A DNA stretch of 64,000 nt from an uncultured Sandaracinus sp. (GTDB lineage: Bacteria > Myxococcota_A > Polyangia > Polyangiales > Houyiibacteriaceae). Shown here piece after piece: positions 7,120 to 31,327 of this stretch. The notes beneath the pieces were generated by a model. The model did not search any database. It saw nothing but the letters and a program-made list of their open reading frames with translations, and was not told the origin of the DNA. Where the stretch lies: positions 2,667 to 66,666 of the forward strand of contig CALJLK010000407.1 of NCBI GenBank assembly GCA_937982655.1, read 5' to 3'. Position numbers and translations under genes: made by a program. Position 1 is the first letter of the stretch; every line of letters starts with the position of its first letter.

Positions 7120-7965
7120 GTGGACCCGCTGAGCGCCGCGATCGAGGAGCTCGACGTGCGTGCGGCGACCTTCGAGCTCGCGCGGGTCCGCGTCGGGGGG
7201 CCGCGGCACGTTCGGAGCTCCGACGTCACCGTGCACGTGGTGGAGCGCGGCGAGCTCCGTTGGCAGATGGCCGGCACCCGACGCGCGCTCTCCGAGGGAG
7301 AGCTCGTGTTCGCGCTCGGCGGGACCGAGCACGTGCTGCACGCCACGGGTGACGACGCCGAGGTGCTCGTCGGGCGAGTCGCGCTCGAAGCGCAGGATCA
7401 TCCCATGTTGATGTCGCTGCCGGCGGTGCTCCATCGGCGTCGCGACGATCGCGTCGCGCGACACCTCGACGCGATTCGCTTCGAGCTCGCGTCTCCCACC
7501 GACGGAAGCCACGCCATCATCCGACGCCTCACCGAGGTCCTGTGGATCGAGGCGATCCGCGCGCACACCGACGAACACGCAGAGTGTCCGGCGAGCGGAT
7601 GGTTCCGAGGGTGGCGCGATCCTTCGCTCGCGCGGGTGCTCTCGGCGATCCACGCCGACGTCGCCGCACCGTGGACCGTGGCGTCGATGGCGAGCGCGGC
7701 GGGCCACTCGCGTTCGACCTTCGCATCACGATTCGCCGAGGTCCTCGGCGAGCCCCCGCTCGCGTACGTCACGCGCTGGCGCATGTTCCGAGCGCGCACG
7801 ATGCTCCGAACGACCGACGCGTCGCTCGACGAGATCGCCGCGCGCGTGGGCTACGCGAGCGCGGCCGCGTTCGCGGTGGCGTTTCGTCGGATGCACGACC
7901 GGACCCCGGGCGCGTACCGGAGCTCGGAGCGCGCCACGAACGGGTCGTCCGACGCGGAGCGCTGA
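7120..7965 (+). CDS. AraC family transcriptional regulator with cupin sensor domain
   Basis: Track ORF of 281 aa with a GTG start. The C-terminal segment HSRSTFASRFAEVLGEPPLAYVTRWRM...IAARVGYASAAAFAVAFRR is a classical AraC HTH pair. Confidence 0.85.
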   Translation: MDPLSAAIEELDVRAATFELARVRVGGPRHVRSSDVTVHVVERGELRWQMAGTRRALSEGELVFALGGTEHVLHATGDDAEVLVGRVALEAQDHPMLMSLPAVLHRRRDDRVARHLDAIRFELASPTDGSHAIIRRLTEVLWIEAIRAHTDEHAECPASGWFRGWRDPSLARVLSAIHADVAAPWTVASMASAAGHSRSTFASRFAEVLGEPPLAYVTRWRMFRARTMLRTTDASLDEIAARVGYASAAAFAVAFRRMHDRTPGAYRSSERATNGSSDAER

Positions 7966-22063: not shown

Positions 22064-22433
22064 GACTCCTCGATGTAGCAGCCGTGGAACGTGCGTCGAG
22101 GCCCGAAACATGGGGCGTCGGACGGGGCGCGTGGGGATTTGCTTCAGAATCACGATGAAATCCGGAAAGAACGGAAAAGCACACGAGGCAGACCGCCCCT
22201 GTCGCCGAGGCGGCCACGGGATCGGATCGGAGTGAGCCTTCGGTGCAGCCCGGGAGCGATCCGCCGCGTGAGCGCCATCCGGCGACCCAAGCGTTCGGAA
22301 GAGCACGGCGGGGTTCGTGGCTGCGAACCACGAACTCGGGTCATCGCGACCGCGGCGACGATCGAGGACGCGCCCCCGCGCGACGTCGATCTGCGGTTCC
22401 CGACGCGCGGACGCTGCATGTACCATCGACGCG

Positions 22434-23891
22434 ATGAGCGACGCGCTCGTACGCATCGTGGCAGCCGGCGACACGCACATCGGGCTGCGAGAGCACAACG
22501 AGGACGCGATCCTCCTGCGGCGTGAGCTGGAGCTGTACGCGCTCGCGGACGGCGCCGGCGGCGAGAACGCGGGCAACGTCGCGAGCAACCTCGCGCTCAC
22601 GACCATCGCGCATCGCTTCGAGGAGACGCAGAACAAGGAGCGTCCCGACTTCGACGTGCTCGGGCTCCCCTCGGGCGCGCGGCGCCTCTCGGCGGCGGTG
22701 CACCGCGCGAACGCGGAGATCGTGCAGCTCGCGCAGGCTTCGCACCGTTACCAGGGCATGGGCACCACCGTGGTGGCGGCGTACGTCGAGCCGGCGCGCG
22801 CGATCATGCACCTCGCGCACGTGGGCGACAGCCGCTGCTACCGGTTGCGCGCGGGCTTCGTGGAGCTGCTCACGCAGGATCACAGCCTGCTCAACGACGT
22901 GCTCGAGCTCGCGCCCGAGCTGCCGGAAGCGAACGCGAAGAAGCTGCCGACGCGCGTGGTGACGCGCGCGCTCGGGATGGAGCGCGTGGTGCGGGTGAGC
23001 GTGCAGTCGCTCGGGCTCGCGCCGGGCGATCGTTACCTGCTCTGCAGCGACGGGCTCACCGACCAACTCGAAGAGGAGCAGATCGCGGACGCGCTGCGGC
23101 AGGAGCTGCGGCCGGACGCGCTCGTGAAGCTCTTGCTCGACGTCTCCCACGCGGCGAAGGCACGCGACAACGTCGCGGTCGTGGTGCTCGACGTGCACGC
23201 GGTCGGCGCGAGTGACTATCCACAACCGGCGCTCCGCGGTCCGCGGGGCGCGGTCAGCGATTCGGATCCGGAGATCGTGATCCTCGGCAGCGAGCCGCCC
23301 GACCGTGGGCGATCCGAGCGTGCGGCGCTCTACTCCGGCGAGACCGACGTCAGCGCCGAAGACGACGGTGGTGACGACGACCCCGACCTCGACGCCGAGC
23401 CCGCGCGCCCGTCGGATCGCCCTTCGTCCGCCCCCCCCGAAGGCGAAGAGAGTGAAGGCGACGACGTCGACGAGGAGGTCGTCCTCGAAGCCGACAGCAT
23501 CCCTCCCGAGCGCATCTCGGCGATCTCGTCCGCGCGCTTCAAGCGACCGAAGGCGAGCGCGCCACCGCAGACGACCGCCAAGCCGGTGCGACCGCCCGCG
23601 TACGTGCCGCCGGATCCTTCGGGAAAGCCAGAGGGTTCGTGGTCGGAGCCCGCACCGGCGCTCCAGCTCGACGAAGAAGAAGACGCTGGCACCACCAGCC
23701 AATGGCCGGCCGTGAAGATCGTGCCGGCCGCGCCCGGCAAGGCGGAGGAGCTGAAGGTCCTGCTCCACGAGCTGCCAGAGCCACGCGACGAGCGGGATCC
23801 GACGATCCGCTTCCGGCGTCGGTGCCGCCACTGCAACGCGCTCTTCGATGGCCCCGCGGACGTGTGCCCGTTCTGCTGGAAAGCGGACTGA
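22434..23891 (+). CDS. PP2C-family Ser/Thr phosphatase with acidic disordered tail and C-terminal zinc ribbon
   Basis: Track ORF 22317..23891 trimmed to ATG 22434. Contains GLREHNEDA, LADGAGG, GMGTTVV, HVGDSRCY, LCSDGLTD and DNVAVVV (PP2C motifs). The protein ends RCRHCNALFDGPADVCPFCW. Confidence 0.85.
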   Translation: MSDALVRIVAAGDTHIGLREHNEDAILLRRELELYALADGAGGENAGNVASNLALTTIAHRFEETQNKERPDFDVLGLPSGARRLSAAVHRANAEIVQLAQASHRYQGMGTTVVAAYVEPARAIMHLAHVGDSRCYRLRAGFVELLTQDHSLLNDVLELAPELPEANAKKLPTRVVTRALGMERVVRVSVQSLGLAPGDRYLLCSDGLTDQLEEEQIADALRQELRPDALVKLLLDVSHAAKARDNVAVVVLDVHAVGASDYPQPALRGPRGAVSDSDPEIVILGSEPPDRGRSERAALYSGETDVSAEDDGGDDDPDLDAEPARPSDRPSSAPPEGEESEGDDVDEEVVLEADSIPPERISAISSARFKRPKASAPPQTTAKPVRPPAYVPPDPSGKPEGSWSEPAPALQLDEEEDAGTTSQWPAVKIVPAAPGKAEELKVLLHELPEPRDERDPTIRFRRRCRHCNALFDGPADVCPFCWKAD

Positions 23892-23909: not shown

Positions 23910-24683
23910 TCACCCGCGACGGCGCCGAAGCGCGACGAGCACCGTCGCGACGAGCGCGAGCTCTCCCGACGCGTGGCCCCTGGGGGCGCGGCCCACCCGA
24001 CACGAGCAGCCGCCGCTGACCGCCTCGTGCTCGTGACCTCCGGCGTCGCGGCCTCCCGCGTCGCGCGTCCCCGCGTCGCGCGTCCCGCCGTCGATCGACG
24101 TCCCCGCGTCGATCGCGACGCCCGCATCGATCGCCACGCCCGCGTCGGTGCCCGCGCGTGGCACGAGCACGAGGTCCGCGCACTGGTAGTAGTTGTCGTT
24201 GCCGCCGATCGTGTACGGCCGCTTGTCGTACATCACCTGGATCACCTGCAGCGTGCAGCGATCGCAGACCACGTCCGGCAGCGTGACGGTGATCGTCTGC
24301 TCCCGCGCGGGATCGTCGACCACGTGGTCGAGCAGTACGATCGCGGGATCGCCCGGTGCGAACACCGGATCGGGGCCGCTCGTCTCGCAGTTCTCGACGC
24401 AGACCGGGTCCGCGAAGTCGTCGTGTCCGTCGACGTCGAACGCCACGCGGTAGTGGCTCGGGTGATCGATGTACGCCTCGATCACGATCTCGATCGTCTG
24501 CCCCGCCTCGAAGGTCGTCACCGCCGAGCCGCGCACGCTCCCGGCCGCGCCGCACGGGGCGTCCTTGAGCTCCTCGCCGCCATCGCGTGCCGCGGGCGCC
24601 ACGAGGTGAAGGTGTGCGTGCGCGGGCGAGGCGAGACACCACGTCACGAGACACGACGCGAACGGGACGAGCGCGATCCGCAT
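23910..24683 (-). CDS. secreted LPMO-like (N-terminal His after signal cleavage) protein with MYXO-CTERM anchor
   Basis: Track ORF 23910..24770- trimmed to ATG 24683. Signal MRIALVPFASCLVTWCLASPAHA, then a mature N-terminus HLHLVAPAARDGG. Six Cys in the globular domain. DAGVAIDAGVAIDAGTSIDGGTRDAGTRDAGGRDAGG linker. The terminal GGCSCRVG...LALVATVLVALRRRRG is a MYXO-CTERM-type sorting signal. Confidence 0.75.
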   Translation of the reverse strand: MRIALVPFASCLVTWCLASPAHAHLHLVAPAARDGGEELKDAPCGAAGSVRGSAVTTFEAGQTIEIVIEAYIDHPSHYRVAFDVDGHDDFADPVCVENCETSGPDPVFAPGDPAIVLLDHVVDDPAREQTITVTLPDVVCDRCTLQVIQVMYDKRPYTIGGNDNYYQCADLVLVPRAGTDAGVAIDAGVAIDAGTSIDGGTRDAGTRDAGGRDAGGHEHEAVSGGCSCRVGRAPRGHASGELALVATVLVALRRRRG

Positions 24684-24759: not shown

Positions 24760-25677
24760 ATGAGCCCCACTGGCGTCGGTCTCGGTCTTCGCGCGGCGAT
24801 GGCGCGCGAGTTTCTCGCTCGGATCCCCGACGAGGTCGCGTTCGTCGAGGTGCACCCGGAGAACTACGTCGGACGCGGCGGCCTCTACCGGCGCAACCTC
24901 GATCGCGCGCGCGATCGTTATCCGGTGCTCACCCACGGGCTCACGCTCGGCTTCGGCAGCACCGAGCCCTTCGATCGTGCGTTCCTCGCAGACGTGCGCG
25001 CCTTCCTCGATTCGGTGAACGCGCCTTGGCACAGCGATCACCTCTGCTTCGGCGGGGCGGGCGACGCGTTCGTGCACGATCTCCTGCCGATCCCGTTCAC
25101 GGATGAGTCGGTGAAGACCGCGGCGCGACGCATCACCGAGATGCGCGACGCGCTCGATCGGCCAGTCGCGTTCGAGAACCTCTCCTACTACGTGCCGCTC
25201 GCGAAGGATCCGCTCGACGAGGCGCGGTTCTGCGTCGAGGTCGCCGAGCACGCGGACTGCGCGATCATGCTCGACGTCAACAACGTCTTCGTGAACAGCC
25301 GGAACTTCGGCTTCGATCCGCGGAAGTGGATCGACCTCGTGCCCGCGCATCGCGTGGTGCAGATGCACGTCGCCGGACACCTCGTGCGCCCCGACGGGTT
25401 GCGCATCGACACCCACGGCGAGCCCGTCCCCGACGGCGTGTACGAGCTGCTCGACTACACGCTGCGCAAGCTCGGGCCGCGGCCGGTGCTGCTCGAGCGC
25501 GACAACGACATCCCGTCGCTGGACGAGCTGCTCGCGGAGGTTCGGCGTTTGAACGAAGTGTACGCGGCGGCGACGAGCGCGGGTGTTTCGAGCGTTCCGT
25601 CTACGACCACGACCACGTCCACGTCCACGACCACGACCGCGTCCACTTCTTCTTCTCACGCGGAGGTCGCGAAGTGA
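24760..25677 (+). CDS. DUF692 / multinuclear non-heme iron oxidase (MNIO; MbnB/TglH/BufB/HvfB family)
   Basis: Track ORF of 305 aa. GVGLGLR...EVAFVEVHPENY, LTHGLTLGFGS, WHSDHLCF, FENLSYY, MLDVNNVFVNSRNFGFD, MHVAGH and VLLERDN are the characteristic TIM-barrel blocks of DUF692 proteins. There is an unusual Thr/Ser-rich C-terminal tail. Confidence 0.9.
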   Translation: MSPTGVGLGLRAAMAREFLARIPDEVAFVEVHPENYVGRGGLYRRNLDRARDRYPVLTHGLTLGFGSTEPFDRAFLADVRAFLDSVNAPWHSDHLCFGGAGDAFVHDLLPIPFTDESVKTAARRITEMRDALDRPVAFENLSYYVPLAKDPLDEARFCVEVAEHADCAIMLDVNNVFVNSRNFGFDPRKWIDLVPAHRVVQMHVAGHLVRPDGLRIDTHGEPVPDGVYELLDYTLRKLGPRPVLLERDNDIPSLDELLAEVRRLNEVYAAATSAGVSSVPSTTTTTSTSTTTTASTSSSHAEVAK

Positions 25678-26432
25678 TCCCGCTCGCGGAGCACGAGCGC
25701 CTCGCGGCGGCGGTGTGTTTCTCGCGTGAGCTCGACGACGTCGTCGTGGCCACGCTCGCGGGCGGCGATGCGCTCGCGGACGAACGTTGGCGTGTGTACC
25801 GCGAGATGATCCGCTCACGCTTCCGCAAGGTCGTGCAGGCCGCGCTGCCTCGCACCACCCACGTGCTCGGCGATCGCTTCGAGGCGCGCTTCGCCGCGTG
25901 GCTCGACGAAGCGCCGCCCGACACCCGCTTCTTCCGTGAGGTCCCGGTCGGCTTCGCGCACCACGTGGAGGCGTGGCTCGCCTCGCCCGGAGCGGCCGAT
26001 CTCCCGGCGTTCACGGCCGACATCGCGCGCTACGAGATCGCGCGATGGCGCGTGCTCGCGGCACCCGACGACGAGCCCGCGCAGGAGCTCTCCTTCGAGC
26101 GCCCGCCGCAGTTGACCCGCTCGCTCGCGCTGCTCGACGTGACCCACGCGGTGCACGCGAAGAAGAAGGGGCCTCCGAAGGCCGGCGTCGCACACCTCGC
26201 GATCTACCGCGCGCCGAAGGACGACGCGTTCGAGGCGGTCACGCTCGAGCTGAACGAGCTCGCGCGCGATCTGCTCCGCGCGTGGTCGGACCCGAGCGAG
26301 ACCCCACTCGCCGCGCGGGTGCAGGCGGTCACGCAGGCCCGCGGGACCGCGATCGACGAACGTTTCCTCGAAGGCCTCGGGACGCTGCTCGAAGATCTGC
26401 TGCGACGCGGCGTCGTGCTCGGCTCGCGCTGA
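25674..26432 (+). CDS. DUF2063-type partner protein (BufC/HvfC-like putative peptide-binding subunit)
   Basis: In-frame GTG 25674 inside track ORF 25326..26432+, overlapping the MNIO stop (GTGA). WRVYREMIRSRFRKVVQAALPRT...FFREVPVGFAHHVE resembles DUF2063 N-terminal domains. GC3 is high only from about 25674 onward. Confidence 0.8.
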   Translation: MIPLAEHERLAAAVCFSRELDDVVVATLAGGDALADERWRVYREMIRSRFRKVVQAALPRTTHVLGDRFEARFAAWLDEAPPDTRFFREVPVGFAHHVEAWLASPGAADLPAFTADIARYEIARWRVLAAPDDEPAQELSFERPPQLTRSLALLDVTHAVHAKKKGPPKAGVAHLAIYRAPKDDAFEAVTLELNELARDLLRAWSDPSETPLAARVQAVTQARGTAIDERFLEGLGTLLEDLLRRGVVLGSR

Positions 26433-26658
26433 GCGCTCGTGTGGAGGTCGTGAGCGTGCGCTCGCCACGGGCATGCACGTGCGGTCGTCGTCGTGAAGGT
26501 GAACGCGAATCGAGCCGCTCGACGTCGCGTTCGACATGGCCCGCGCGTCGATGCGACCCTCGACACCTCGGCTCGTGGCTCTAGAGCCCGAGCTTCGACT
26601 GCGACGACGCGCGGAACCACGGCCTCGCTTCGGCGTCGGACGCAGTGTTCTCGAAAGG

Positions 26659-26850
26659 ATGACGATGACTCTGCGCCTCTTCCTCGCTCTGGCCTCTCTC
26701 TCCCTCGTCGCGTGCGGCGGCGGCGAAGAGACGACCTCGACCACCGCGACCGACGAGACCTACACGACGTCGGGCGACGAAGCCGAAGCCGCCGAGGACG
26801 ATCCGCCGGAGCCGGACTACGACGATCCGGACATGGCCGACGGGATGTGA
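26659..26850 (+). CDS. 63-aa hyper-acidic small lipoprotein (candidate MNIO substrate)
   Basis: Track ORF 26536..26850 trimmed to ATG 26659, where GC3 bias begins. MTMTLRLFLALASLSLVACGGG (lipobox), then EETTSTTATDETYTTSGDEAEAAEDDPPEPDYDDPDMADGM. There is no Cys after the lipobox Cys. Confidence 0.6.
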   Translation: MTMTLRLFLALASLSLVACGGGEETTSTTATDETYTTSGDEAEAAEDDPPEPDYDDPDMADGM

Positions 26851-26866
26851 GGCCGACGGGATGTGA
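26835..26866. repeat. perfect 16-bp tandem duplication spanning a stop codon
   Basis: GGCCGACGGGATGTGA occurs at 26835-26850 and again at 26851-26866. A degenerate third copy GGACGGACGCGATGGGTGA lies at 26867-26885. The first copy encodes the last residues ADGM plus the stop of the 63-aa ORF. Confidence 0.9.
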
Positions 26867-27015
26867 GGACGGACGCGATGGGTGAGACGCCTCGATCCTT
26901 CTCATCCTCGCTTCCGCCGACGCCTTCCGACGCGGGCGCATCGTGCGATCGACGACGTCCCGACATCGGTGCGCTCGAAGAACGGCACGAGGACGCGTGA
27001 GCAGGCGTCGCCTGC

Positions 27016-27594
27016 GTGCGACGATGCGGCGTGAGCGTCTGGTACTTCGCGTATGGCGCGAACATGGCGACCGACGTGATCGTGGGTCGGCGTGGGTTGA
27101 AGGTGCTCGAGAGCCGCGCGGGTCGCGCGGTGGGTTGGCGCGTGGGGTTCGTCGAGCGCGGGCTACCGCTCGTGGAGCCTGCCTTCGCGGGGCTCGTGTC
27201 CGACGAGGTGATGGAGGCGCGGACCGACGAGGCACGCGAAGCGCTCGAACGCACGACCACCGACGCGTGGGGCGTGCTGCACCGCGTGTCGGAGAGTGAT
27301 CTGCGTCGGCTCGATCGTTTCGAAGGCCCGGGCTACCTGCGGCGCGCGGTCGCGGTGCGCGACCGTGAAGGTCACGAGGTGGAGGCGCAGGCCTACACGT
27401 CGCCACGACCGATCGCGGGTCGCGCGCCTTCGCGGCGCTACCGCGATCTGCTGCTCCACGGCGCGCACGAGCACGCGCTGCCGGCGTCGCACCTCGCATG
27501 GCTGAACGGACATCCGACGAGGTACGTGCCGGGGCTCGCAGAGACGCTGGAGCTCGTGGTGCTGGCGGCGGAGCGGCTGCGACGTCGGCGTTGA
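27016..27594 (+). CDS. gamma-glutamylcyclotransferase (GGCT/AIG2-like) fold protein
   Basis: Track ORF of 192 aa. WYFAYGANM is the hallmark YGSNM-type N-terminal motif, followed by FEGPGYLRR. The start is GTG 27016 or GTG 27031. Confidence 0.75.
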   Translation: MRRCGVSVWYFAYGANMATDVIVGRRGLKVLESRAGRAVGWRVGFVERGLPLVEPAFAGLVSDEVMEARTDEAREALERTTTDAWGVLHRVSESDLRRLDRFEGPGYLRRAVAVRDREGHEVEAQAYTSPRPIAGRAPSRRYRDLLLHGAHEHALPASHLAWLNGHPTRYVPGLAETLELVVLAAERLRRRR

Positions 27595-28256: not shown

Positions 28257-28931
28257 ATGGTCGTCGGAGCCATCCTCGCTGGCGCATTCGCCGGCCTCGC
28301 GAGCCTCCCACATTGCGCGGGGATGTGCGGCCCGCTCGCGGCCTTCGCGGGGCGCGACCGACGATCGACGGGCCTCTACCTCGCGGGGCGCTTCGTCAGC
28401 TACGTCGCGCTCGGCGCGCTCGCGGGCGCGTTCGGCGCGACGATGGTGGGCTGGATGGAGCGGCCGCTCGCGCAGGCGCTCCTGAGCTGGACGCTCGGGG
28501 CGGGGCTCGCGCTCACCGCGTGGCGCTTGTGGCGCGGCGGCGCGTCGCGGCCGGCGAAGCTGGTGACGCTGCGGACGAAAGACGAAGCGCGCCGCGCGAC
28601 GCTGCGGGCGCCGCTGCTCGGGTTGATGACGGGCTTTCTTCCGTGCGGCGCGCTCGCGGCGGCGCTTTTGCTCGCAGCAGGCTCCGGCGACGCGCTCACG
28701 GGCGGGCTCACGCTCCTCTCGTTCGCGAGCGCGAGCGCGCCAGCGCTGCTCGGAGCGGGCGTGGCGGCGAGCTACCTGCGTCGCGCGGGCGAGACGCCGC
28801 GCAAGCTGCTCTCGGTCGCGCTCGCGCTCGGCGCGATCGTGCTCTTGCTGCGGCCGATCGACGCGCTGCGCGGCGAGCCGGCGGAGTGTCACGGCGCGCG
28901 GGTCGTCGTGGGAGTGGAGGCTCGGTCGTGA
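28257..28931 (+). CDS. DsbD_2 / TauE-SafE-like membrane protein (HCxxMCGP motif)
   Basis: Track ORF of 224 aa and polytopic. Contains ASLPHCAGMCGPL and a second LPCGAL motif. The stop overlaps the ATPase start (GTGA 28928-28931). In my recollection this family commonly accompanies CcoI/FixI-type ATPases. Confidence 0.75.
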   Translation: MVVGAILAGAFAGLASLPHCAGMCGPLAAFAGRDRRSTGLYLAGRFVSYVALGALAGAFGATMVGWMERPLAQALLSWTLGAGLALTAWRLWRGGASRPAKLVTLRTKDEARRATLRAPLLGLMTGFLPCGALAAALLLAAGSGDALTGGLTLLSFASASAPALLGAGVAASYLRRAGETPRKLLSVALALGAIVLLLRPIDALRGEPAECHGARVVVGVEARS

Positions 28932-31327
28932 GCGAAGAGAGATCGCGCGGAGCCGTATCGGCGGAGTCGTCGCCGCGCACGTGTCTGCACTGCGGGCTGC
29001 CCGTGCCCTCCGAGAACAGCGCGTGGACGCGCGAAGGCTTCTGCTGTCCGGGCTGCCGCAGCGTGTACGGCATCCTGCGCGCGGGCGGGCTCGAGAAGTA
29101 CTACGCGCTGCGCGACGGAGTCGGCGTGCCGGTGGGCGCGGTCGGCGAGCGCGGCGACGCGGAGCGCGATTGGCTCGACGCGGCGAAGGGCAAGCCGCAC
29201 CTCGACCTCGACGTCCAGGGCATGCACTGCGCGGGCTGCGTGTGGGTGATCGAAGAGCTCTTCGAGCGCCGCGGGCCGGGCAAGATCGAGCTCGATCCGA
29301 CGCTCGGGCGCGCGTCGATGTTGCTGCCGGAGGGCTTCGATCTCGAAGGCTTCGTCAGCGACGTCGAATCGCTCGGGTACCAACTCGCGCCCGCGTCGAA
29401 CGATCCAGATCACACGACCGCCGCGAGCGATGCGTTGCTCTTGCGCGTCGGCATCTGCATGGCGCTCGCCGGCAACGGCATGCTCTTCGCGGCCGCGAGC
29501 TACTTCGGCCTCGACGTGAGCGACGGCGCCATCTACCGGCTGCTCACGCGGCTCGCGTTCGCGGCCGCCGCGCTCGCGGTGTTGGTGGGCGGCAGCGTGT
29601 TCGTGAAGGCCGCGTGGCAAGGTCTGCGACGCGGCGTGGTGCACCTCGATCTGCCGATCGCGCTCGGTGTGATCGCGAGCTTCGCGGGCGCGACGTGGAG
29701 CTTCGTGCGCGACGGCGAGGCGCGCTTCGCGGACACCGTCACCGTCTTCATCGCGCTGATGCTGCTCGGGCGGTGGGTGCAGGAGCGAATGCTCGAGCGC
29801 AACCGACGTCAGCTCCTCGCGGACCACGGCGGTGAGGCGCTGCGCACGCGCCGGGTCGACGAGGACGGCGTGCGGCTCGTGCGCGCGACGGAGGTGAAGG
29901 AAGGCGACGTGCTCCAGCTCGGCGCGGGCGATCTCGTGCCGGTGCAGAGCGCGCTGCTGGAGAGCGCGTCGACGTTCTCGCTCGATTGGATCGACGGAGA
30001 GAGCGCGCCGCGCACGTTCGAGGTCGACGCGATCGTGCCGGCGGGCGCGTTCCACGTGGGGCGCGGGACGCGGCGGGTGCGCGCGACCGAGAGCTTCGAG
30101 ACCTCGGCGGTGAAGCGGCTCCTGCAGCGCACGCGATCGCTCACCAGCGATCCGGGCGCGTGGTGGCAGCACGTCGCGCGTTGGTACGTGCTCGGCGTGA
30201 TCGGGGTCGCGGTCGGCGCGTTCGCGACGTGGTGGTCGCTCGAAGGGATCGAGCGCGCGATCGAGGTCGCGACCGCGGTGCTCGTGGTGACCTGTCCGTG
30301 CGCGTTCGGCATCGCGACGCCGCTCGCGTACGAGCTCGCGCACGCGCGGCTTCGTCGGCGCGGGCTCTTCGTGCGCACGCGCGCCTTCCTCGACCGCGCG
30401 CGCGAGGTCACGCGGATCGTCTTCGACAAGACGGGCACGCTGACGACTGGGCGGCTCGCGCTCGTGAACGAGGACGCGCTCGACGCGCTCTCGGCCGAAG
30501 AGCGCGAGGTGCTCGCGAGCCTGGCCGCGGCGAGCACGCACCCGAAGAGCGCGGCGGTGATGCGCGCGCTCGAAGCCCGGGGCGTGGTGGGCGCACCGCG
30601 CGACGTGGTGGAGACGACGGGGCGTGGGGTGTCGGTGCGCGTCGGCGACGTCGAACATCGGCTCGGCGCGCCGGGTTGGGCGGGCGAAGGCACGGGCGAT
30701 CTGGTCTACGGGGTCGGCGACGTGACCCGCGCGGATCTGCGGACCGAAGAGCGCCTCCGCCCCGACGCCGCGCGGGAGCTGCGCGCGCTCGGAGACGCCG
30801 GCTACTCGACGTGGATCCTGAGCGGCGACGATCCGGTGCGCGTGAAGACGCTCGCGCGCGAGGTGGGCATCCCGGAGGAGCGCGCGCTCGGCGGGCACGA
30901 TCCGGAGGCGAAGGCGGCCTTCGTGGCCGCACACGATCCCGCGCACACGATGATGATCGGCGATGGCCTCAACGACAGCCTCGCGGTCACGACGGCCGCC
31001 TGCGCAGGCACGCCCGCGATCGATCGCCCGTTCCTCGCGTCGCGCTCGGACTTCTACTTCACGACCCCGGGCCTCGGTCCGATCCTCGACGCGCTCGCGA
31101 CCGCGAGTGAGCTCGGCCGCGTGGTGCGCGCGCTGCTGGCTTTCGCGGTCGCCTACAACGTGCTCGCGGTGGCGATCGCGTGGGCGGGCTGGATGGAGCC
31201 CTGGCTCGCCGCGCTGCTCATGCCGGCGTCGTCGCTCGCGAGCCTCGCGTACACGCTCACGGCGCTGGGCCCGAAGACGAGCCCGAAGCGCGAGCGGGTG
31301 CGCGCGCTGCGGACCGTCGAGGCCTGA
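28928..31327 (+). CDS. copper-translocating P1B-type ATPase (CcoI/FixI-like)
   Basis: In-frame GTG 28928 within track ORF 28106..31327+. N-terminal CLHCGLPVP...GFCCPGCRSVY metal-binding module. Contains TCPCAFGIATP (CPC), FDKTGTLT, ASTHPKS (HP motif) and MIGDGLNDS. Confidence 0.9.
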   Translation: MSEERSRGAVSAESSPRTCLHCGLPVPSENSAWTREGFCCPGCRSVYGILRAGGLEKYYALRDGVGVPVGAVGERGDAERDWLDAAKGKPHLDLDVQGMHCAGCVWVIEELFERRGPGKIELDPTLGRASMLLPEGFDLEGFVSDVESLGYQLAPASNDPDHTTAASDALLLRVGICMALAGNGMLFAAASYFGLDVSDGAIYRLLTRLAFAAAALAVLVGGSVFVKAAWQGLRRGVVHLDLPIALGVIASFAGATWSFVRDGEARFADTVTVFIALMLLGRWVQERMLERNRRQLLADHGGEALRTRRVDEDGVRLVRATEVKEGDVLQLGAGDLVPVQSALLESASTFSLDWIDGESAPRTFEVDAIVPAGAFHVGRGTRRVRATESFETSAVKRLLQRTRSLTSDPGAWWQHVARWYVLGVIGVAVGAFATWWSLEGIERAIEVATAVLVVTCPCAFGIATPLAYELAHARLRRRGLFVRTRAFLDRAREVTRIVFDKTGTLTTGRLALVNEDALDALSAEEREVLASLAAASTHPKSAAVMRALEARGVVGAPRDVVETTGRGVSVRVGDVEHRLGAPGWAGEGTGDLVYGVGDVTRADLRTEERLRPDAARELRALGDAGYSTWILSGDDPVRVKTLAREVGIPEERALGGHDPEAKAAFVAAHDPAHTMMIGDGLNDSLAVTTAACAGTPAIDRPFLASRSDFYFTTPGLGPILDALATASELGRVVRALLAFAVAYNVLAVAIAWAGWMEPWLAALLMPASSLASLAYTLTALGPKTSPKRERVRALRTVEA

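Follow-up and report, generated by a model that had tools for sequence, protein, structure and literature searches.

Clusters that pair an MNIO enzyme with a PME1-type (DUF2063) partner are known from more than 24,000 loci, and a single activity has so far been found in them, the conversion of Cys into a copper-binding 5-thiooxazole. In the captophorin or oxazolin clusters (HvfABC, FonABC, NgoABC, NedABC), the MNIO and PME1 genes are accompanied by a gene for a precursor with EGKCG repeats. All characterised DUF2063-partnered MNIOs form 5-thiooxazole on Cys; for FonBC, variants with another residue instead of Cys are not processed, Ala before Cys is tolerated, a small residue after Cys is preferred and a single-repeat peptide remains unmodified (PMC13097082). 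Whether 5-thiooxazole is the sole MNIO-PME1 modification was left open by the same authors (PMC13097082). In captophorin and bufferin clusters, precursors strictly precede the MNIO gene and accessory genes come after the partner gene (PMC12452194). Published surveys took only Cys-containing open reading frames (ORFs) upstream of the MNIO gene (PMC12452194), and a conserved Cys-free peptide encoded 3' of the partner gene would be missed. Here, a gene for a small acidic lipoprotein (the mini-lipoprotein) is described, which follows an MNIO-HvfC pair in a 64,000-nt stretch (the window) of contig CALJLK010000407.1 from an uncultured Sandaracinus sp.

Several other systems bear on this locus. Bufferins (BufA1, DUF2282; BufA2, BUF_6/12Cys) are folded, carry 4-12 conserved Cys residues and are encoded ahead of the MNIO. 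About 16% of Buf2 precursors are predicted lipoproteins. The signal peptide of BufA1 is dispensable for modification, recognition residing in the core (PMC11626156). DAG-RiPPs (lipo-DybA, lipo-NedA) are lipobox-bearing RiPPs (peptides that ribosomes synthesize and that are modified after translation), of which the lipobox Cys, in DybA and NedA, is triacylated and left alone by the MNIO; non-RiPP lipoproteins within MNIO clusters are likewise a recognised category (PMC13056109). Other MNIOs act on Asp, Asn, Phe or homocitrulline. Those directed at Asp or Asn include ApyH, PflD and MovX (PMC13056109), which corrects a first-pass annotation of the window, made from the sequence alone, in which Asp-directed chemistry was confined to the aminopyruvatide type. 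Non-Cys MNIOs group into different sequence clusters and have partners of other types; MNIO-PME1 pairs are commonly orphans, lacking any adjacent precursor that can be recognised, and one-Cys signal-peptide ORFs beside MNIOs have been listed as possible precursors (PMC12452194).

Comparison of the locus with described systems

The mini-lipoprotein is probably dedicated to a captophorin-type cluster of Polyangiales-like Myxococcota, of which it is a lineage-specific component. The features on which this comparison draws are as follows:

24760..25677 (+): HvfB/BufB-type MNIO (PF05114, E = 4.6e-92)
25674..26432 (+): HvfC/DUF2063 partner, PME1 type (PF09836, 31.1 bits, cut-off 27.2)
26665..26850 (+): mini-lipoprotein gene, 61 aa if started at ATG 26665, 63 aa if started at the alternative in-frame ATG 26659, stop codon 26848-26850
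26665..26715 (+): putative signal peptide, ending in the lipobox L-V-A-C (Cys codon 26713-26715)
26749..26769 (+): family-defining motif T-D-E-T-Y-T-T; D, E, T, Y and T invariant in 21/21 members, flanking Thr at least 90% conserved
26803..26829 (+): acidic proline tail PPEPDYDDP, from orthologue alignments; P50, D54 and P55 at least 90% conserved
26830..26847 (+): C-terminal extension DMADGM, confined to the subclade without an upstream Cys precursor

The locus is a captophorin-type cluster to which a conserved Cys-free lipopeptide has been added, in a lineage without the canonical precursor. As in captophorin clusters, an HvfB-nearest MNIO and a DUF2063/HvfC gene overlap at stop and start (GTG start of HvfC at 25674 within GTGA; a GGAGG can be read from the sequence), repeat-Cys precursors lie upstream in the relatives, and the neighbourhoods are copper-related; the known precursor NedA also has a lipobox and is triacylated. 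Unlike captophorin precursors, the mini-lipoprotein has a core without Cys or 5-mer repeats, is encoded 3' of the partner gene and carries a motif of its own, TDETYTT. The repeat of the relatives also differs (E-A-S-C-G, not E-G-K-C-G), and the window locus has no repeat precursor. The best NCBIfam matches of the MNIO were HvfB (293.6 bits, cut-off 360) and BufB (273.2 bits, cut-off 310); it is closest to HvfB/BufB but not an equivalog by the NCBI threshold. Similarly, HvfC reached 64.5 bits, under its cut-off of 142.

The likeness to bufferin precursors noted in the first-pass annotation holds for a small, signal-bearing product encoded beside MNIO and DUF2063, but does not extend to core Cys residues or the upstream position: unlike the folded bufferins, the mini-lipoprotein is predicted to be disordered, has a Cys-free core and comes after HvfC. 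With the DAG-RiPPs it has in common that a small peptide of an MNIO cluster bears a lipobox, and also the idea of finishing by Lgt, Lsp and Lnt; whereas their Cys core is demonstrably MNIO-modified, the chemistry on the mini-lipoprotein would have to be new. The non-RiPP lipoproteins of MNIO/bufferin clusters (BON-domain, LptM, glycine-zipper, TssQ and hypothetical proteins; clusters V-IX, PMC13056109) resemble it in being small, adjacent to the pair and without the look of a substrate, but the mini-lipoprotein is far shorter, is predicted to be fully disordered and shows no sequence relation to them in the Pfam and NCBIfam scans. Finally, aminopyruvatide (ApyA/ApyHI) shows that an MNIO can act on an acidic residue close to a C-terminus. 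ApyH, however, belongs to a different MNIO cluster, works with a PME type-2 partner and acts on a precursor that lacks a signal peptide and ends in Asp, as opposed to the DUF2063 partner, the signal peptide and the terminal Met found here. The ApyH model gave 89.4 bits on the window MNIO (cut-off 400).

The mini-lipoprotein gene and its family

The ORF at 26659-26850 (+), with product MTMTLRLFLALASLSLVACGGGEETTSTTATDETYTTSGDEAEAAEDDPPEPDYDDPDMADGM, was confirmed as a genuine gene, as the first-pass annotation had proposed. G+C at codon positions 1, 2 and 3 was 0.64, 0.53 and 0.86, the third-position value (GC3) of neighbouring genes being 0.82-0.91 and the G+C content of the window 71%. Compared with the closest relative, locus L001 from a Myxococcota metagenome-assembled genome (MNIO identity 97%), six nucleotide differences were found, five synonymous and one changing Glu to Asp. 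The ratio of nonsynonymous to synonymous substitution rates (dN/dS) was 0.06 against L001, 0.24 against L085 and 0.51 against L086. Region 26605-26850 forms a conserved island (95.9% identity to L001, 97.6% to L089) between unalignable spacers, and the genes flanking it are less conserved (88-93%). Orthologues with the same lipobox and motifs were obtained from 17 loci beyond the window.

Translation had been assumed to start at 26659 (63 aa). The ATG at 26665 (MTLRL...) is the likelier start, because a Shine-Dalgarno sequence AAGGA (26655-26659) lies 5 nt upstream and the resulting N-terminus agrees with those of the orthologues (MTLR/MTR). A 104-aa version starting at 26536 was rejected; its in-frame extension is taken as non-coding given a GC3 of 0.61 and no conservation.

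Lipoproteins were recognised by an N-terminal n-region of positive charge, by an h-region that is hydrophobic and by the lipobox pattern [LVI][ASTVI][GAS]-C. The N-terminus M-T-L-R-LFLALASLS-L-V-A-C has these features of a substrate of signal peptidase II (SPII) and Lgt, and the lipobox Cys is invariant in 21/21 members, in agreement with the lipoprotein signal seen in the first pass. Position -1 is A or G in all 21, while position -3 varies among orthologues. From these features, the mini-lipoprotein is probably exported and lipidated. Its description as Cys-free applies to the core (21/21 members); the sole Cys of the peptide, that of the lipobox, would remain as the lipidated N-terminus. 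Counted from this Cys, the mature part comprises 45 residues rather than 43, of which 16 are Asp or Glu (36%) and 10 are Ser or Thr; Lys, Arg and His are absent, and its net charge of about -16 bears out the designation hyper-acidic. AlphaFold2, run with the 21-sequence alignment, gave a helix for residues 2-17 (signal peptide) only and coil for the remainder (predicted template modelling score 0.23); the mature peptide is thus predicted to be intrinsically disordered.

A profile search of 5.8 billion protein clusters yielded about 24 true members of 38-87 aa, unannotated or labelled 'hypothetical'; weaker matches covered the signal peptide only. In the alignment of 21 full-length members, the lipobox Cys and D-E-T-Y-T are invariant, the Thr residues flanking them in TTxTDETYTT are at least 90% conserved and the tail reads (D/E)PPEPxY(D/E)DP, its Tyr being replaced by F, A, N or M in some members. 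Most orthologues terminate one residue past the D-P of the tail. The extension PDM(A/D)DG[MFY] occurs in the window, L001, L089, L085/P0006, P0023 and L086/P0011 (PDMDDGY) and is absent elsewhere. Scans at E <= 0.01 revealed no Pfam or NCBIfam family reaching its cut-off, and neither the LptM model nor DUF2282 matched. Matches to Pfam 'New_glue' and to NCBIfam lipoprotein models lay far under their cut-offs, covered only the signal peptide and the Thr-rich stretch, and were discarded. Neither the motif nor the family was found in the searchable literature and supplements. The mini-lipoprotein is the founder of a small undescribed family.

Linkage to the MNIO-HvfC pair

Scanning genomes with the window MNIO gave 80 myxobacterial loci, to which context look-ups and a metagenome scan (two loci only) added others. 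By tblastn and six-frame motif scans, the small ORF was found in the closest clade only and was absent from L010-L080. Eighteen loci, the window included, had both a mini-lipoprotein gene and visible context, and in 18/18 the MNIO-HvfC pair lay at most 4.1 kb away, which is the synteny that the first-pass annotation had proposed to look for. The gene stood directly 3' of HvfC on the same strand in 14 of the 18 and upstream of MNIO on the same strand in none (0/18). It overlaps HvfC by 4 nt in L083, follows it after 5 nt in L086 and also overlaps or abuts it in L084; in L009, L081, L087 and L088 it is 0.9-4.1 kb from the pair or on the opposite strand. No family member was seen away from an MNIO-HvfC pair among these 18 loci. 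The ORF was intact in all relatives with an MNIO identity of about 57% or more and visible downstream context, so that loss or disruption in close relatives keeping the pair, which the first-pass annotation had named as a refutation, was not encountered. In the window, the mini-lipoprotein gene is the next gene after HvfC, as had been stated, but it does not abut the pair, starting 226-232 nt past the HvfC stop at 26432.

Cys-repeat precursors in related loci

In almost all related loci, one or two small Cys-repeat lipopeptide ORFs precede MNIO. In them, an unusually conserved signal peptide (MNSALKxTLVAMATAALG...) leads into a lipobox Cys, after which an acidic core carries E-A/G-S-C-G-G repeats and finishes with EASCGEGSCG. 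Ser precedes Cys in this 5-mer (E-A-S-C-G), compared with Lys in the published EGKCG, and the G-C-G-G lipobox is present in addition to the repeats. By analogy with the described clusters, this lipopeptide would be the expected thiooxazole ('captophorin') substrate. It lies upstream of MNIO in 11 mini-lipoprotein loci. Representative positions are:

L003, 5506-5769: Cys-repeat precursor
L005, 5587-5865: Cys-repeat precursor
L006, 5619-5891: Cys-repeat precursor
L007, 5661-5933: Cys-repeat precursor
L008, 5199-5432 and 5548-5835: Cys-repeat precursor, two copies
L082, 3505-3768 and 3976-4239: Cys-repeat precursor, two copies

Further loci also carry such precursors, tandem duplicates are frequent, and several loci have precursor-like extra ORFs 2-5 kb from MNIO.

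Six-frame scans and inspection of the upstream gaps detected no Cys-repeat precursor in the window, L001, L085, L086 or L002. Over the 64 kb of the window, four precursors used as tblastn queries and a motif scan in six frames returned noise only, and the gaps upstream of MNIO in L085, L086 and L002 held no small ORF; the sequence of L089 is too short to show this side. In a neighbour-joining tree of the MNIOs, the precursor-less loci (window, L001, L089, L085, L086 and probably L002) formed one clade nested within the mini-lipoprotein clade. The window subclade has lost the Cys precursor from the locus. Upstream of the pair, a SCE4755-family copper protein is present in the window and L001, WYL/PafC regulators in L085 and a 943-aa PPC-domain protein in L086, from which it follows that MNIO, HvfC and the mini-lipoprotein have moved, or been kept, together. 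Purifying selection acts on each of the three in this subclade, with dN/dS values of 0.08-0.21 (MNIO), 0.15-0.48 (HvfC) and 0.06-0.51 (mini-lipoprotein).

All 74 MNIO columns that are at least 90% conserved among 84 related MNIOs were unchanged in the precursor-less clade (74/74), which gives no sign of new chemistry, and 19 conserved H/D/E columns were retained in the window MNIO, in keeping with a PF05114 TIM barrel that has His, Asp and Glu metal ligands. Neofunctionalisation of MNIO or HvfC in the precursor-less or mini-lipoprotein-bearing clades was considered and rejected, as no conserved column had changed and the differences seen were confined to the usual clade-marking substitutions and two small insertions in HvfC.

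No leader common to the canonical precursor and the mini-lipoprotein was found. Pairwise identity of signal peptides in the same genomes was 43% for the mini-lipoprotein and 73% for the canonical precursor. This drift argues weakly for an accessory over a substrate, the weakness being due to the dispensability of the BufA1 signal peptide; for the same reason, the signal peptide was dropped as a candidate recognition element (PMC11626156).

Role of the mini-lipoprotein

The mini-lipoprotein is not a canonical substrate of the MNIO-HvfC pair. Captophorin, bufferin and oxazolin precursors precede the MNIO gene and carry in their core a conserved Cys in a Cys-Gly, Lys-Cys or Cys-Lys motif; of these, the mini-lipoprotein has neither the position nor the Cys, and it does have the Sec-type signal of a small product beside MNIO and DUF2063. 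In the 11 loci with a canonical precursor upstream, which is the standard arrangement for this enzyme class, the acidic peptide could be no more than a second substrate.

We infer, with about even confidence, that it is a dedicated exported accessory partner that itself stays unmodified. Its Sec/SPII signal peptide would be removed and the Cys lipidated, giving a membrane-anchored, polyanionic, disordered peptide that displays TDETYTT. In the relatives, MNIO-HvfC would convert the Cys residues of the upstream (EASCGG)n lipobox peptide into 5-thiooxazoles, and the acidic lipopeptide, exported unmodified, would function alongside the thiooxazole lipopeptide, either in the envelope or at the surface, possibly as a docking partner via TDETYTT or as a cation-attracting partner in copper handling. 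In the window subclade, the pair would act on a Cys precursor encoded elsewhere. If the peptide is indeed unmodified, myxobacterial lipid-anchored peptides that bind copper would have a new obligate accessory in it, and the precursor-less subclade would show that MNIO-HvfC pairs can serve precursors encoded elsewhere.

Several points weigh against an unmodified accessory. A disordered peptide of about 40 residues with one invariant heptad resembles the core of a RiPP, or a short linear motif for binding, more than a typical accessory protein. MNIO and HvfC are the sole proteins that always co-occur with it, which makes the pair the most economical binder of TDETYTT, and the pair can be reached only before export. 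No Cys precursor was found in about 100 kb around the loci of the monophyletic subclade (window, L001, L089, L085, L086, probably L002). Lastly, the trio has been held together under purifying selection in three different neighbourhoods.

These observations bring in the alternative that the mini-lipoprotein is a true, Cys-free substrate of a second type and, in the window lineage, the only one encoded locally, which we regard as possible but rather doubtful. HvfC or MNIO would bind TDETYTT in the cytoplasm, oxidation by MNIO would fall on a residue other than Cys (in the motif Thr, Tyr, Asp or Glu, or else the conserved C-terminal D-P-x), and export followed by lipidation would yield a DAG-RiPP. 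The peptide has the size, predicted disorder and signal sequence of all substrates of the enzyme class (PMC12452194) and a single invariant heptad within an otherwise variable sequence. In several loci it is translationally coupled to HvfC or abuts it, and the monophyletic precursor-less subclade keeps MNIO, HvfC and the mini-lipoprotein intact in three unrelated neighbourhoods and gained the C-terminal extension. Non-Cys chemistry is known for MNIOs (on Asp, Asn, Phe and homocitrulline), the exclusivity of 5-thiooxazole for MNIO-PME1 has been stated as open (PMC13097082), and recognition in the core, as in BufA1 (PMC11626156), would suit such a substrate. On the other hand, FonBC strictly needs the Cys that this core lacks, and the characterised DUF2063-partnered MNIOs all make 5-thiooxazole. 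Non-Cys MNIOs belong to other clusters with other partners (PMC12452194), the ApyH model stays at 89 bits against a cut-off of 400, and the conserved MNIO columns are all unchanged. A precursor would be encoded ahead of MNIO and not after HvfC, two chemistries would be required of the enzyme in the 11 loci with a canonical precursor, and orphan MNIO-PME1 pairs are common elsewhere. The specific form of this proposal, in which a PME1-type MNIO performs its first non-thiooxazole modification on Thr, Tyr, Asp or Glu of the TDETYTT heptad to give a new lipid-anchored RiPP, is put forward tentatively, as something we would not expect. If true, modification of the peptide would represent new enzyme chemistry and a new lipidated RiPP, and the precursor-less subclade would be a natural minimal three-gene system.

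It is unlikely that the small lipoprotein has no functional relation to the pair and merely shares synteny with it in one lineage. The family is indeed limited to one clade, where genes for a PP2C-type phosphatase, an acyl-CoA dehydrogenase and a thymidine phosphorylase are syntenic as well; in the window, 232 nt from HvfC, the gene may have its own promoter, and L009, L081, L087 and L088 have it at a distance of 0.9-4.1 kb or on the opposite strand. Nevertheless, it stays with the pair where both flanks have been replaced (window, L085, L086), overlaps or abuts HvfC in L083, L084 and L086, and was always accompanied by an MNIO-HvfC pair in the 18 loci whose context is visible.

That the lipobox Cys itself is the MNIO target, the peptide being a one-Cys captophorin precursor with A-C-G-G akin to the S-C-G-G repeat, is very improbable: although the C-G-G context is common to the canonical repeats, FonBC accepts Ala ahead of Cys and favours a small residue behind it, and one-Cys signal-peptide ORFs near MNIOs have been listed as possible precursors (PMC12452194), the Cys sits exactly at the lipobox after a hydrophobic h-region in 21/21 members, canonical precursors have a G-C-G-G lipobox besides their repeats, the lipobox Cys of DybA and NedA is triacylated and not MNIO-modified (PMC13056109), a single-repeat peptide is left unmodified by FonBC, and the invariant TDETYTT would be left unexplained.

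Upstream region and spacers

One further feature belongs to the mini-lipoprotein gene:

26605..26664 (+): conserved 5' region, aligning with L001, L089 and partly L085

The rest of the spacer does not align. A sequence resembling promoters of extracytoplasmic function (ECF) sigma factors, GGAAC-N16-CGTC, is located at 26613-26637 (+), about 25 nt ahead of the small ORF, and is kept in L001 and L089; the L085 version, GAAAC-N16-CATC, lies within an otherwise unalignable spacer. It may tentatively be read as a promoter. As an ECF-type promoter it was rejected, since its position is conserved but the motif is not enriched (3 in the window, 3.5 expected by chance), and no ECF sigma gene was seen near the small ORF. 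No sigma-70 promoter or intrinsic terminator was detected in 26300-27100, and no riboswitch or small RNA with an Rfam match in the spacer.

The 3' end of the MNIO gene (25590-25677, +) encodes a Thr/Ser-rich low-complexity tail derived from hexanucleotide repeats of the ACG/ACC type. Repeats (CACGAC)n of variable length also fill the spacer between HvfC and the small ORF in L001 (about 7850-7900) and L089 (about 470-530). The MNIO-tail and spacer stretches of close relatives probably fail to align because these hexanucleotide repeats vary in length.

Neighbouring genes

Following the small ORF, a GGACT/AIG2-like gene, a DsbD_2-like membrane protein gene and a FixI-like P-type ATPase gene occur in this order. 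Together with the remaining neighbours of the window, they are located as follows:

22317-23891 (+): PP2C-type phosphatase
23910..24683 (-): SCE4755-family copper protein, of the lytic polysaccharide monooxygenase (LPMO)/BIM1-like type, with MYXO-CTERM tail (NF043005, 140 bits, cut-off 75; Pfam BIM1-like, LPMO_10)
27016-27594 (+): GGACT/AIG2-like gene (gamma-glutamyl cyclotransferase fold)
28257-28931 (+): DsbD_2-like membrane protein
about 28950-31327 (+): P-type ATPase with ATPase-cat_bd N-terminal metal-binding domain (FixI/CcoI-like copper pump)

The GGACT/AIG2-like gene has about 89-90% amino acid identity in L001 and L089 and is absent from the other mini-lipoprotein loci. In L083 and L084, MopE-like copper-binding proteins adjoin the cluster. 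Considering the copper pump of the window, copper-related neighbours thus recur, but as different genes.

The SCE4755 copper protein is divergent from MNIO, occurs only in the window and L001 and occupies the spot of the relatives' Cys-repeat precursor; it is regarded as context of the cluster, and membership in the system is not claimed. TIGR03901 gave 17.9 bits, slightly under its threshold of 20, and the C-terminus (GGCSCRVG...LALVATVLVALRRRRG) resembles a MYXO-CTERM sorting tail. The predicted signal cleavage (...SPAHA|HLH) would leave an N-terminal His, as in a site of the His-brace type.

Another gene 3' of the partner was seen in Labilithrix, where a different, Cys/His-rich ORF of about 140 aa (HNCHCEV...HSHCGCPICVPEL) comes after the DUF2063 gene (L039, 7783-8199; L046, 7817-8254). 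This suggests that other lineage-specific genes exist 3' of the partner gene in myxobacterial MNIO clusters.

The PP2C-type phosphatase gene recurs beside the cluster in L003, L005, L007-L009, L081, L082 and L088. Its 3' end runs 4 nt into the start of HvfC in L088, apparently placing both in one operon. The window PP2C is longer (524 aa) and distant (27-29% identity), and ends with a CxxC...CxxC motif.

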